From a virus: a DNA stretch of 64,000 bases. Both the position numbers and the translations under genes were made by a program. Shown piece after piece: positions 21,960 to 24,317 of this stretch (the first letter of the stretch is position 1; each line of letters begins with the position of its first letter). The notes under the pieces were generated by a model. The model did not search any database and had not been told where the DNA came from. It saw only the letters and a list, made by a program, of their open reading frames with translations. The stretch lies in the IMG/VR virus record IMGVR_UViG_3300037755_000828, positions 1-64,000 of that record; one strand, given 5' to 3'.

Positions 21960-24317
21960 TCACCGCTCGCCGCGGATGTTGAGCTGCATGTGCTCGACGC
22001 CGATCGGTGCTGCCCGCGGCGCCAGCTCGACGCCGCGGCTCACGGCCGACTTCAGCTCGCGAATGTTGCCCGGCCACGGGTAGAGCAGCATCGTGGCGAT
22101 CGCTGCGTCGGTGAACGCTGGCTCAGCTGCTTCGTAGCCGCGCTCGCTCGTGTACTTCGCGTAGATCCGGCGAGCGATCTCGATGACGTCGGACTCGCGA
22201 TCGCGCAGCGGCGGGATCTCGATCTCGACCTCGGCGAGCCGGTAGTACAGATCCGGCCGCAGCCAGTCGGCGGGCAGCGAGGTCGCGGACACGATCCGGG
22301 CTTTGTGCTCGCTTGCCAGGATGCGGAGCATCGCCGACTGGCTCTCCCGCGGGGTGTCGCCGATCTCGTCCAAGAACAGCGTGCCCCCGGCGGCGGCGGC
22401 CAAGGCCTTGCGCAGCTGCTTGGCCGCTTCGCGCGGATCCTCGGCGAGCTCGGCCGCGTTGATAGCGACGAACGGGCCGTCGCCGACATGCAGCCCGCGG
22501 GCGATCGCCTCCTTGCCCGTGCCCGTCTCGCCCAACAGCAGCACCGAGAGCCGGCTGTCGCGGATGCGCTCGAGCACAGCGTAGATCTCGCGCATCGCGT
22601 CGGACTCGCCCCACGACTCGCCGAACGTCGTGGACTCGGACAGGCCGATGTCGTCGAGCCGCTCGTCTGCCGCGGTCTCGAGCTCGGTTGTGGTTTTGCC
22701 CATCAACGCGGCCTGCACCTGCGACAGGTAGAACTTCCACCGGCCCACGATCACGCGCCCCGGCACCTTGCCGGCCTTAGCCATCTTGATCAGCGTCGCC
22801 GGCGAGATGTTGAAGGGCTTGGCCGCCTGCGCAGCAGAGACCATGTCCTCGCCTTCGGGGTTGTCGAGCCCGCTCTCGACGGCCTTCTTGCGAGCCAGCT
22901 CCTCGCGGGTGGACTTGGCCTCGTAGTAGGCGTCGATGTCTGGATAGTCCTCGCGCAGCGTCGGGTCGCCCATAATCACGTCGTGCGGCACGCCAGATTT
23001 CGCGGCATCCAACGCGCGAGCCTCCGCGTTTGCCTGTCGCTGCTCGGCCTTTTCCTTGCCGTTCGTTTGCTGGATATCGCCCAGCACCACGATGAATTGC
23101 GCCGGCACGATGATGGTCTCGCCCGCGAGTTTGGCCTTGTACTGCTGGGCCGCGAGCGAGATCTCGGTCCCTCGGGTGATCGCCGGCACGATGAGCTGCT
23201 CCGCCCACCCGCCGACAAGATCATAGTAGGCGTCGAGCGGAGCGGAGTTCGTGCCGAGGTTGCCCTCGGCTTCCATTAGCAGCAGCTCTTTCGGCACACC
23301 CGAGCTCGCGGCCGCGCGCAGGGCCTTGCGTTCGACCAGCTTGTCCAGGCCAGCGATGTTGCGCGAGACGTCGCCGAGCTCGTCCTCCCTGTCGATCACG
23401 AGCAGGCCGTGTGCGCTCAGCCCTTGCAGGGCCTGCTCGATCCGCAGCGCCACCGCCACGCCCTCGGCGCTGTCCGGGTTCGCTGCTGCGAGCGCCCAGC
23501 CCCGGAGCTTCAGGTGCAGGATCGACAGCGTGCGGATGATCGCACTGACGTCGCACTCGACCTTGGTCCACTCGTTGAAGGCCGCGTAGATGCCCTCCAT
23601 CCAGCTCGGTGGCCAACCGCTGAACGACGGCATGACGACGCCGTCGGGCGTGTCGGTGACGACCATGATCGTGAGCCGCGAGCGGTGGATGACGCGCCGC
23701 TCCCCCACGCGCTGTGTCTCGAACCACTCGGCCGTTTTCCAGTTGTGGCCCTGTTGCGGTCGCAGGCTGTACGCCGTGTGGACGCGGACGCCTTTGTACG
23801 CGCGGACGTTCTTCAGCTCGAGACCCTCGCCATCGCGATCGCTGTCGTCGACGACGTGCTCGATGATCCCAGCGCCGAAGACGAACGCCCAGGTCGCGGC
23901 CAGACGGCAAGCGATCTTGAACTTCAGATCGTCGAGTGCCGAGATGGTCGGCGCCCAGTCGAAGTCCCGAACATCGACGTTCGTGTACTTGTGGCCAGGC
24001 TTGGTCATCAGCATCGCGAACCGGCCGATCATCTGCCGCGCGACGCCGTTGCTGATGTACCAGGCGTAGGCAGCCTCGCCGAACATCCAACCTGGCAGCC
24101 CGAACGACGCCTCGCCACGCAGGATCGCAGCGATCTCCCCGACCTTCGACGTGCCGTCGGTTCGCGCGAACTTGCCCGACGTGTCGCGGCGCGGTGGCTT
24201 GCTTGCCGTCGAGCTCGACCGCTTCGCAGCAGCTGCCCGCTTTGGGGGCGAGCCCTTCGCAGCCGACCGCTTCGCACCGACATCCGCTCGTCCCCTGGCT
24301 GCTGCTTTTTTACTCAT
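21960..24317 (-). CDS. DUF1073-type portal protein fused to excisionase-like HTH and sigma54-activator-like AAA+ domain
   Basis: Portal motifs (Y.SNGVARQMI, FVFGAG, IHRSRL, AAASSGVP..LL, YYD.V); HTH ~22844-22700; AAA+ GETGTGKE, TLFLDEIGD, RPDLYYRL, WPGNIREL. Confidence 0.85.
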   Translation of the reverse strand: MSKKAAARGRADVGAKRSAAKGSPPKRAAAAKRSSSTASKPPRRDTSGKFARTDGTSKVGEIAAILRGEASFGLPGWMFGEAAYAWYISNGVARQMIGRFAMLMTKPGHKYTNVDVRDFDWAPTISALDDLKFKIACRLAATWAFVFGAGIIEHVVDDSDRDGEGLELKNVRAYKGVRVHTAYSLRPQQGHNWKTAEWFETQRVGERRVIHRSRLTIMVVTDTPDGVVMPSFSGWPPSWMEGIYAAFNEWTKVECDVSAIIRTLSILHLKLRGWALAAANPDSAEGVAVALRIEQALQGLSAHGLLVIDREDELGDVSRNIAGLDKLVERKALRAAASSGVPKELLLMEAEGNLGTNSAPLDAYYDLVGGWAEQLIVPAITRGTEISLAAQQYKAKLAGETIIVPAQFIVVLGDIQQTNGKEKAEQRQANAEARALDAAKSGVPHDVIMGDPTLREDYPDIDAYYEAKSTREELARKKAVESGLDNPEGEDMVSAAQAAKPFNISPATLIKMAKAGKVPGRVIVGRWKFYLSQVQAALMGKTTTELETAADERLDDIGLSESTTFGESWGESDAMREIYAVLERIRDSRLSVLLLGETGTGKEAIARGLHVGDGPFVAINAAELAEDPREAAKQLRKALAAAAGGTLFLDEIGDTPRESQSAMLRILASEHKARIVSATSLPADWLRPDLYYRLAEVEIEIPPLRDRESDVIEIARRIYAKYTSERGYEAAEPAFTDAAIATMLLYPWPGNIRELKSAVSRGVELAPRAAPIGVEHMQLNIRGER

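Follow-up and report, generated by a model that had tools for sequence, protein, structure and literature searches.

A phage family whose portal protein carries a C-terminal excisionase-type HTH and an enhancer-binding-protein-like AAA+ domain

Introduction

What does an AAA+ domain of the bacterial enhancer-binding protein (bEBP) type do at the end of a phage portal protein? To our knowledge, portals are regarded as passive, nucleotide-free rings, and the terminase outside the head is the source of all packaging energy described so far. An intact-looking AAA+ domain and an HTH on the lumen side of every portal subunit would fall outside current models of packaging, retention and ejection.

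We analyzed such a fusion in a window of 64,000 nucleotides, positions 1 to 64,000 of the IMG/VR record IMGVR_UViG_3300037755_000828. The record is a viral contig from sediment metagenomes and not a prophage in a named myxobacterium; the contig is 94.9 kb long and about 97% complete, it is a myovirus, and its host is possibly a member of the Myxococcota. The original prediction offered two roles for the HTH-AAA+ part, a decoy that poisons sigma54 regulation in the host or a DNA-binding ATPase ring in packaging or ejection. We tentatively prefer, with less than even confidence, a portal module that would serve as a sigma54-independent, ATP-switched DNA-binding device, tethered at the inner portal mouth and acting on the phage's own DNA. 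Its near-equal rival is that the module is cargo delivered with the genome. Either reading, if true, would add a component to phage biology, either a clamp or anchor that works at the portal from inside or a pre-packaged, ATP-dependent early factor.

Results and discussion

One uninterrupted gene follows the large terminase

The fused gene and the head genes around it are as follows:

24314..25960 (-), large terminase (TerL, Mu-like), directly upstream of the fused gene with a 4-nt ATGA overlap
21960..24317 (-), whole fused portal-HTH-AAA+ gene (P0001), 785 aa plus stop
12646..14313 (-), head maturation protease (DUF2213), which in all related loci is the first conserved head gene to follow the portal
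10693..11781 (-), major capsid protein (PF09950)

The reading frame is stop-free throughout, its ATG overlaps the TerL stop, and a GAGG lies 7 nt upstream of this ATG, in agreement with the original description of a single 785-aa ORF directly after terL. No RNA dataset is listed as holding the stretch.

Contigs in Logan break at 22355-22540, as would be expected if the ORF had arisen as a chimera or by reading through two genes. However, these breaks fall on AAA+ motifs common to many bEBP genes of the same metagenomes, and depth at the breaks spikes to about 2000x. Independent metagenome contigs from three runs of three studies (one of them maybe the window's own source) span the junction between portal and HTH at 22844 without a single difference, and the same uninterrupted ORF is present in about 40 independent assemblies. 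We consider the probability of an assembly or annotation artefact to be negligible.

The N-terminal part is a portal

Two segments precede the extension:

24150..24317 (-), Lys/Arg/Ser/Ala-rich N-terminal tail, aa 1-56, predicted disordered (pLDDT below 50)
22872..24149 (-), portal domain, aa 57-482 (wing, stem, clip and crown helices 420-482), PF06381

Pfam places Phage_portal_3 (PF06381) at aa 84-433; the score is 80.9 bits (cut-off 33.8), and 82.9 bits in the genome scan. This assignment is further supported by PHROG 146 (E 1.8e-31), by PDB profile matches to the Pam3, T1 and FCWL1 portals, and by the AF2 model, in which the wing, stem, clip and crown are present (pLDDT 78) and which Foldseek aligns with the T1, FCWL1 and Pam3 portals at target-normalised TM-scores of 0.60-0.69. 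The predicted portal N-terminus is thus borne out by PF06381, but not its end at ~470 aa, as the portal fold with its crown helices reaches about residue 482. It is the sole portal detected in the about 97%-complete genome, where other portal families were not detected. The tail evolves almost neutrally (dN/dS about 0.6-1.3), and in the alignment the N-terminus of more distant clades is shorter and unrelated, or absent.

The portals of T1 (9L01), FCWL1 (9JLF) and Pam3 (8HDS) share the fold and the PF06381/TIGR01555 lineage, whereas in both the family profile and the model only the portal part has a match in their chains. On this basis, the HTH-AAA+ extension appears to be specific to this phage family. 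In the AF2 model the order of the domains is crown, hinge, HTH, linker and AAA+. The crown faces the capsid lumen in all solved portals that we know of. With the extension C-terminal to the crown, we infer that twelve copies of the HTH-AAA+ module per virion should sit on the lumen side, where the portal channel opens into the capsid.

A hinge, an HTH and a linker follow the crown

The region between crown and AAA+ domain consists of three segments:

22845..22871 (-), hinge GLDNPEGED, aa 483-491, between crown and HTH
22698..22844 (-), excisionase/MerR-like winged HTH, aa 492-540 (HTH_17, PHROG 66; GRWKF at 525-529)
22614..22697 (-), linker, aa 541-568, with conserved D551, R553, D555, L559 and S560

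HTH_17 matches aa 494-538 with 21.4 bits (E 3e-4), which is under the Pfam cut-off of 27; with this qualification, Pfam agrees with the earlier motif reading of an excisionase/MerR-like HTH followed by a bEBP AAA+ domain. The HTH residues G516, G520 and R526 are invariant in the family, and dN/dS in the HTH is 0.14-0.59.

An internal start that would free HTH-AAA+ had also been proposed, and this idea does not hold for the family. The Met in question is residue 492, encoded by the ATG at 22844. It is retained in a clade at 49% identity (L007/L008) and replaced by Leu (CTG or CTC) in L003, P0019, P0020 and the more distant-clade loci L009-L014. Because Met492 is unconserved and the GAGG is just 2 nt from the ATG, release by internal initiation is not a family feature.

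The hinge has the lowest pLDDT between crown and HTH (below 50 at 483-485, with a mean of 55 over the block 481-490). Its protein sequence is invariant among close relatives (dN = 0 in eight pairs with dS of 0.2-2.1), and the motif, even its Glu, is lost in the most distant clade (e.g. P0035). An invariant hinge would equally suit a cleavage site, which would favor release of the module.

In the cargo reading, which we hold to be a real but somewhat unlikely possibility, the hinge would be cut at head maturation, and the freed HTH-AAA+ (up to 12 per virion) would exit with the DNA. In the next host it would refold, use host ATP and act as an early sigma54-independent DNA-binding factor, possibly a regulator of early or lysogeny promoters in the manner of TyrR or Rhodobacter capsulatus NtrC, or a binder and protector of DNA ends. 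Invariance of a segment that is poorly ordered in the model is consistent with cleavage, as is the head protease gene conserved at all loci, and the invariant hydrolysis residues would be most sensible where ATP is plentiful. Other portals in the BFVD carry fused Acb1-like and HAD-like domains, and effector domains fused to portals or MuF proteins have been described, with injection proposed (PMC5512222, PMC6316719). However, neither the hinge motif nor looser versions of it recur in other proteins of the genome, head proteins included, which gives no sign of a shared protease site, and the loss of the motif in the most distant clade also argues against cleavage. A folded AAA+ domain would further need unfolding to pass the tail, and no candidate target sites were identified.

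The effectors fused to portals or MuF proteins, discussed by Iyer et al. (2017) under a polyvalent-protein logic, include BcepF1 gp124 (portal-InPase), portal-PBECR and portal-2H, and provide the precedent for the earlier statement that DUF1073 portals sometimes carry cargo domains (PMC5512222). The cargos described are small conflict enzymes (RNases, phosphoesterases and toxins, for example), and that paper mentions no AAA+ or NtrC-type domains (PMC5512222). Our protein has in common with them a non-structural C-terminal domain that would reach the capsid and a head-module gene beside the terminase. It differs in its cargo, which is predicted from sequence to be a DNA-binding HTH and an oligomerising AAA+ ATPase. 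A literature search found no description of a portal with the HTH-AAA+ architecture, as the original prediction had supposed.

The AAA+ domain retains its catalytic residues and has lost the sigma54-contacting loops

The AAA+ domain and its lid contain the following features:

22206..22613 (-), bEBP-type AAA+ alpha/beta subdomain, aa 569-704 (PF00158)
22509..22532 (-), Walker A GETGTGKE, aa 596-603 (G596, E597, G599, G601 and K602 invariant)
22383..22460 (-), L1/GAFTGA deletion site, aa 620-645, where a plain helix replaces ESELFG..GAFTGA
22356..22382 (-), Walker B TLFLDEIGD, aa 646-654 (D650 and E651 invariant)
22290..22328 (-), deletion site of L2 (pre-sensor-I hairpin), aa 664-676, a gap relative to NtrC1
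22236..22259 (-), R-finger region RPDLYYRL, aa 687-694 (R687, D689, L690 and R693 invariant)
21963..22205 (-), AAA+ lid, aa 705-785 (AAA_lid_14, aa 705-783)
22053-22076 (-), sensor II WPGNIREL, aa 748-755 (W748, G750, N751 and R753 invariant)

Sigma54_activat (PF00158) matches aa 570-682 with 70 bits against a cut-off of 20.2, the family profile matches Aquifex NtrC1 (1NY6) at E 3e-57, and Foldseek aligns the AAA+ domain with NtrC1, PspF and FleQ at a target-normalised TM-score of about 0.75. Walker A, Walker B, the R-finger and sensor II, originally described as intact, are indeed intact and invariant across the family, alongside PPLRxR. No Fis-type HTH (HTH_8) is found by Pfam, again as described; the protein ends 30 aa past sensor II, with no DNA-binding domain after the lid.

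In the alignment with NtrC1, 13 residues are missing exactly where the GAFTGA loop would be and, in this clade, a further 12 at the L2 hairpin. GAFTGA is absent from all 40 family members. The distant clade retains an L1 remnant (LLGDGDRPGLFEQA), and the L2 hairpin is retained only in the distant P0035-P0038; the earlier claim that both loops are missing is therefore right for the protein studied here but not fully for the distant members of the family. With L1 (GAFTGA) lost, and L2 too in this clade, the AAA+ domain cannot engage sigma54. Since the helix in place of L1 differs between clades in its basic residues, a conserved DNA contact in the pore is not evident.

The domain and its lid are homologous to those of NtrC1, PspF, FleQ and ZraR, with which they share the Walker motifs, R-finger, sensor II and PPLRxR. 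Unlike these bEBPs, the protein lacks GAFTGA/L1, a Fis-type HTH, a sensory N-domain and, in this clade, L2; its AAA+ domain is fused to a virion protein, and no sigma54 promoters are evident: the 64-kb window holds two matches to TGGCAC-N5-TTGC with at most one mismatch against 3.7 expected, and such promoters are not enriched. Relatives of bEBPs that lack GAFTGA and work independently of sigma54 include Escherichia coli TyrR, Pseudomonas PhhR, and R. capsulatus NtrC and HupR, all of them free regulators in the cytoplasm whose sensor domain is N-terminal and whose HTH is C-terminal. Our module resembles them in coupling an HTH to a PF00158 AAA+ domain that lacks the sigma54-contact motif and keeps its nucleotide-site residues. 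It differs from them in that the HTH is of the excisionase type and N-terminal to the AAA+ domain, and in that the whole module hangs on a portal.

These features bear on the first of the two roles proposed originally, a dominant-negative bEBP that would enter or compete with host bEBP hexamers and poison sigma54 transcription in a myxobacterial host. The retained ring-forming surface and R-finger, together with the missing sigma54-contacting loops, would suit such a decoy. A myxobacterial host would suit it as well. The AAA+ domain has its nearest relatives among FHA-type bEBPs whose names come from Polyangiaceae, Labilithrix and other Myxococcota. In addition, a tRNA piece resembling an attP has a 98% match over 51 nt in a genome from the phylum to which a Myxococcales MAG belongs (taken as Myxococcota), although this match, which has no equally deep control in other phyla, is only suggestive of the host. 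The host assignment is, however, tentative, and the conserved HTH, the invariant catalytic Glu and sensor II would be superfluous for a decoy. Covalent attachment on the lumen side of the portal would separate the module from host bEBPs unless it is released, and with 40-50% identity to any one bEBP, mixing with the dozens of bEBPs in a host is doubtful. Given also that sigma54-type promoters are not enriched, the decoy gains no specific support and leaves the HTH, the hydrolysis residues and the obligatory portal tether unexplained; we give it very little credence.

The fusion is conserved in every relative found and under purifying selection

About 40 metagenomic relatives, all from uncultured phages of sediment and soil and at 33-86% identity, are fused in the same way, and TerL-portal-protease synteny is found in 13 IMG/VR loci. 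No unfused or split relative was found, and searches seeded with the portal domain yielded nothing but fused forms and short partial proteins. The latter shorter relatives of the portal domain (109-425 aa) lie mostly on contigs of ~1-3 kb and are likely contig-end pieces. A tblastn search of 50,697 phage records gave no relative of the fusion or of its portal part, only bEBP genes in contaminated records. Similarly, a search for prophage copies in the species-representative genomes of GTDB gave ordinary bEBPs only. The suggested search for the same architecture thus succeeded in metagenomes and not in prophages.

Purifying selection acts on every folded domain, with dN/dS of 0.14-0.6 in the HTH, AAA+ domain and lid; the fusion is both present and selected in relatives. 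The AAA+ domains of the fused proteins form one clade against 60 bEBPs (SH-aLRT 99) and co-diverge with the portal, a pattern which indicates that the domain was captured once from a bacterial enhancer-binding protein. The AAA+ domain is the best-conserved part of the protein, being 53-61% identical at the far end of the family compared with 28-39% for the portal. Candidates for a stand-alone HTH-AAA+ ancestor among 1.84 billion representatives turned out to be gene calls of tandem-AAA bEBPs.

The strict 1:1 fusion, never split, also bears on a function in the cytoplasm before assembly. The AAA+ domain could drive ATP-dependent oligomerisation, maybe on DNA through the HTH, and so nucleate the dodecamer (2 x 6), or the unassembled fusion could be a late-gene or lysogeny regulator tied to portal supply. 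In GAFTGA-less bEBP relatives such as TyrR, ATP binding controls oligomerisation, and the invariant nucleotide-site residues and trans-acting R-finger of the family imply an ATP-dependent oligomer. However, a purely cytoplasmic regulator needs no portal fusion in every lineage, there are no operator-like repeats near the gene, and many portals assemble without such help. We therefore consider a cytoplasmic role quite improbable.

A proposed tethered module at the inner portal mouth

An HTH coupled to a ring-forming domain could also recognize a pac site and recruit TerL in place of the small terminase (TerS). No TerS was recognized in the genome, a Mu gp27-type TerS is absent, and the slot upstream of TerL, which is not conserved across relatives, is taken by a repeat-rich, lipoprotein-like gene and not by a TerS. 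PHROG 57, a TerS with an HTH, matches this HTH alone in the whole genome, but the match is weak and non-specific, as the control matched in 14 of 14 control genomes. At 20-30 kb, searches for operator- or pac-like repeats gave only pairs at chance level and a (GD)n repeat within the coding sequence of the lipoprotein-like gene. In novel phages a TerS often goes unrecognized, and the topology is wrong, the portal C-terminus being inside the capsid while TerS works outside on concatemers. A small-terminase surrogate is very unlikely.

A closer parallel is SPP1 gp7, a DNA-binding minor head protein that is targeted to the capsid interior via the portal and is needed for an efficient start of infection (PMC6316719). 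Like SPP1 gp7 and Mu gpF (MuF), the module would place a DNA-binding function at the lumen side of the portal, and it occupies the same slot just after the portal gene. It has no sequence relation to them (no PF04233 homologue is found in the genome), and here the link is covalent, which would give 12 copies and add an ATPase.

In the tethered reading that we prefer, the gene product is the structural portal of the phage, with a C-terminal excisionase-type HTH and a captured AAA+ domain. The HTH-AAA+ module would remain tethered at the inner mouth, where it would oligomerise, bind the phage's own genome and be switched by ATP. The HTHs would hold or organize the DNA end at the crown, and the AAA+ oligomer, loaded with nucleotide in the producer cell, would determine by its state whether the DNA is gripped or released, both while it is packaged and as ejection begins. 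This role is that of a portal-targeted DNA binder of the capsid interior like SPP1 gp7/MuF, here covalently attached and equipped with a nucleotide switch. We infer oligomerisation, DNA binding, ATP hydrolysis and the function as clamp or anchor from the retained domains and residues. Besides the variable helix at the L1 site, the HTH_17 match under the cut-off and the hinge that would equally suit cleavage, two further points count against this reading. There is no ATP inside a filled capsid, and hydrolysis could therefore matter only before or during packaging or after release. The rings of bEBPs are 6-fold, a mismatch to the 12-fold portal.

The second role proposed originally, a DNA-binding ATPase ring in packaging or ejection, would fit a module placed past the crown, with an invariant catalytic set and R-finger, a conserved HTH and a fusion that is never split. 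In its more specific form, the twelve AAA+ domains would be arranged around the channel axis on the lumen side, as one ring or as a stack of two hexamers, and act as an ATP-gated clamp or valve or as an auxiliary motor for packaging, retention or release. We regard this form as unlikely. If the ring or clamp were real, it would be the first ATPase known to us to work from inside a tailed-phage head.

The family documents an evolutionary path in which a bEBP core was captured and the sigma54-contact loops were then lost stepwise, the distant clade keeping the L2 hairpin and an L1 stub. Under the ring reading, this stepwise loss of the pore-lining L1 and L2 would have cleared the bore for double-stranded DNA. 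The size of the family (about 40 sequences, several of them in near-complete genomes of 80-97 kb) permits work with recombinant proteins without a cultured host.

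Domain architecture and integrity of the fused gene

The minus-strand ORF at 21960-24317 runs without interruption for 785 amino acids and, as the original prediction proposed, joins a portal domain to an excisionase-type HTH and an AAA+ module of the bacterial enhancer-binding protein (bEBP) type. Pfam matches and motif positions in the protein are as follows:

aa 84-433: Phage_portal_3 (PF06381), 80.9 bits (cut-off 33.8)
aa 494-538: HTH_17, E 3e-4, below the cut-off
aa 525-529: GRWKF of the HTH
aa 570-682: Sigma54_activat (PF00158), profile positions 3-132 of 168 only
aa 596-603: Walker A
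aa 646-654: Walker B
aa 687-694: R-finger region
aa 705-783: AAA_lid_14
aa 748-755: sensor II

The motifs quoted in that prediction all lie where it placed them. PHROG matches follow the same division, with portal phrog_146, excisionase-type phrog_66 and, on the AAA+ part, phrog_7998 (function unknown). The start codon overlaps the stop of the upstream large terminase gene (TerL, 24314-25960) as ATGA, with a GAGG 7 nt upstream, which suggests translational coupling of the two genes. The proposal that the ATG at 22844 (Met492) serves as an internal start does not hold as a family feature: a GAGG lies only 2 nt 5' of it, and the residue is Leu (CTG or CTC) in relatives (locus L003, proteins P0019 and P0020, and loci L009-L014 of more distant clades), while the 49%-identity clade (L007/L008) retains ATG.

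We further note that the N-terminal tail (aa 1-56; 24150-24317, minus strand) is rich in Lys, Arg, Ser and Ala and predicted to be disordered. This basic tail is near-neutral (pairwise dN/dS ~0.6-1.3 in close relatives), and the N-terminus of more distant clades is shorter and unrelated, or absent. The tail might contact DNA or scaffold.

Contigs of three sediment-metagenome runs from three studies, one of which may be the window's own source, span the portal-HTH junction with zero differences. Contig breaks at 22355-22540 fall on AAA+ motifs that numerous bEBP genes of these metagenomes share, and the Walker B region (22336-22452) shows a contig depth spike of ~2000x and fragmented Logan assemblies because this stretch is near-identical in very many sediment bEBP genes. 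An assembly or annotation artefact therefore has a negligible probability.

Conservation of the fusion and loss of the sigma54-contact loops

A search of 5.8 billion proteins returned ~36 relatives (733-828 aa, >90% query coverage, 33-86% identity), all with both portal and Sigma54 domains, and a representative search added five further clusters. The fusion is uninterrupted in 13 IMG/VR loci, where TerL, the fusion, the protease and the capsid gene follow one another in this order. Searches with just the portal part found no unfused relative: apart from fused proteins, they matched only short sequences (109-425 aa), which resemble contig-end pieces and come mostly from contigs of ~1-3 kb.

The AAA+ module is the best-conserved part of the family, with far-end identity of 53-61% vs 28-39% for the portal domain. 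Forty sequences show no variation at G596, E597, G599, G601 and K602 (Walker A), D650 and E651 (Walker B), R687, R693, the PPLRxR motif, or W748, G750, N751 and R753 (sensor II). Between close relatives, pairwise dN/dS values are 0.16-0.28 for the portal, 0.14-0.59 for the HTH, 0.22-0.36 for the AAA+ domain and 0.19-0.39 for the lid; the fusion is both present and under selection in relatives. In the AAA+ tree, 23 sampled fused sequences form one clade against 60 bEBPs (SH-aLRT 99), consistent with the AAA+ domain having been captured once and having since diverged together with the portal.

Aligned with Aquifex NtrC1 (1NY6; E 3e-57), the family profile has two gaps, one of 13 residues exactly on the GAFTGA loop and one of 12 on the pre-sensor-I hairpin, confirming the predicted absence of L1 and L2. 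In the most distant clade (P0035-P0038) the L2 hairpin is still present and L1 persists as a stub (LLGDGDRPGLFEQA); both are absent from the clade to which the window belongs. Read from the alignment, the sigma54-contact loops have been lost stepwise within the fused family. Pfam finds no Fis-type HTH_8 in the fusion, as was also foreseen.

A classical bEBP identity is ruled out: the protein lacks GAFTGA, L2 and the Fis HTH, and the 64-kb window shows no enrichment of sigma54-type promoters. The originally suggested sigma54 decoy is scarcely credible, as it leaves unexplained the conserved HTH, the invariant hydrolysis residues and the obligatory portal tether.

Genome context and host

The parent viral record is 94,859 bp long and 97% complete by CheckV. 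The virus is a myovirus, whose minus-strand module runs from TerL through the fusion, an accessory island, a head protease and a PF09950 capsid protein to sheath and tape measure. Features surrounding the fusion are:

26015-27232, minus: 405-aa gene in the slot upstream of TerL, where the small terminase (TerS) is expected; repeats at 26831-27077
14314-21959, minus: accessory island of ~8 kb between portal and protease, its ORFs mostly without matches
16361-17932, minus: HD-domain (HD_3) protein of 523 aa, within the island
12646-14313, minus: DUF2213 head protease, 555 aa, with the protease domain at aa 151-306 only
11800-12600, minus: ORF of ~260 aa between protease and capsid genes, absent from the GC3-based gene call

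PF06381 is matched once in the genome, PF04860 has no match, and neither has the Mu-type portal model PF06074, a negative that carries no weight because the latter model also matched none of 14 control genomes. As the only portal detected, the fusion must, judged by gene content, be the structural portal of this phage. It also holds the only PF00158 domain found.

TerL is Mu-like (30-33% identity to Mu gp28). Neither a MuF protein (SPP1 gp7 / Mu gpF family) nor a Mu-type TerS was found in the genome, and no TerS was recognised anywhere in it. That the fused module stands in for TerS is very improbable, its topology being wrong. The 405-aa gene carries a long coding repeat of 12-nt period, (GD)n-like, and its sole match is a PHROG of unknown function.

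Distant relatives (e.g. L010) have the protease directly after the portal. Protease homologues span 548-766 aa, so that a fused scaffold-like part is probable. Genes of 260-270 aa occupy the position of the ~260-aa ORF in L003, L006, L009 and L010, and it may encode a scaffold or decoration protein.

The bEBPs nearest to the fusion AAA+ are FHA-type, named from Polyangiaceae, Labilithrix and other Myxococcota. A tRNA-like piece (52041-52091) matches tRNA genes of genomes in the phylum of a Myxococcales MAG, which we took as Myxococcota (up to 98% over 51 nt); ARAGORN found no complete tRNA in the window. A host among the Myxococcota is plausible.

Predicted anatomy and function

An AlphaFold2 model built from a 40-sequence alignment (mean pLDDT 78) divides the protein as follows:

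aa 1-56: disordered tail
aa 57-482: portal fold, with the crown helices (420-482) at its end
aa 483-491: short, poorly ordered hinge
aa 492-540: winged HTH
aa 541-568: linker
aa 569-704: AAA+ alpha/beta subdomain
aa 705-781: AAA+ lid

In Foldseek, the portal part resembles the T1, FCWL1 and Pam3 portals (target-normalised TM-score 0.60-0.69) and the C-terminal part NtrC1, PspF and FleQ (~0.75). To our knowledge, the crown is the C-terminal, capsid-lumen-facing part of every solved tailed-phage portal; by homology, the HTH-AAA+ module should therefore sit inside the head, at 12 copies per virion. The trans-acting R-finger is kept in the fused family. The data support a predicted ATP-dependent oligomer coupled to a putative DNA-binding domain, one that would always be placed at the portal's lumen side in 1:1 stoichiometry.

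Our preferred reading, a tentative one, is that the module remains attached on the crown side. There it would serve as an anchor or clamp for the phage genome, at the channel's inner mouth, in a state that nucleotide might fix while the phage is still in the producer cell. An analogue at the portal's interior side is the DNA-binding protein SPP1 gp7, which is directed via the portal to the procapsid interior and is required for efficient initiation of infection (PMC6316719). A near-equal rival, somewhat doubtful in itself, supposes that maturation includes cleavage of the hinge; the freed module would then accompany the DNA and act as an early factor packaged in advance. Effectors fused to portal or MuF proteins have been proposed to follow the same logic (PMC5512222), and further portal fusions are present in BFVD. 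The hinge GLDNPEGED has dN = 0 in eight pairs of close relatives (dS 0.2-2.1); it is not kept in the most distant clades, and a motif scan did not find it again in other proteins of the same genome. That the module nucleates assembly in cis, or acts as a regulator in the cytoplasm, is unlikely.

Comparison with known systems

The components are all of known kinds: PF06381 portals, GAFTGA-less bEBP-derived AAA+ proteins and portal-cargo fusions. TyrR, PhhR and R. capsulatus NtrC are, like the fusion, bEBP-derived AAA+ proteins without GAFTGA. The original prediction knew of no portal with this architecture, and we likewise found none with an ATPase and HTH on its lumen end in the literature searched, 50,697 phage records or BFVD; the combination is new as far as we know. 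The BFVD entries A0A6J5NR05, A0A6J5R7M5 and A0A2H4PAR7 are viral portals of 619-1393 aa with annotated Acb1-like or HAD-like domains, and portals with extra domains may be commoner than appreciated.
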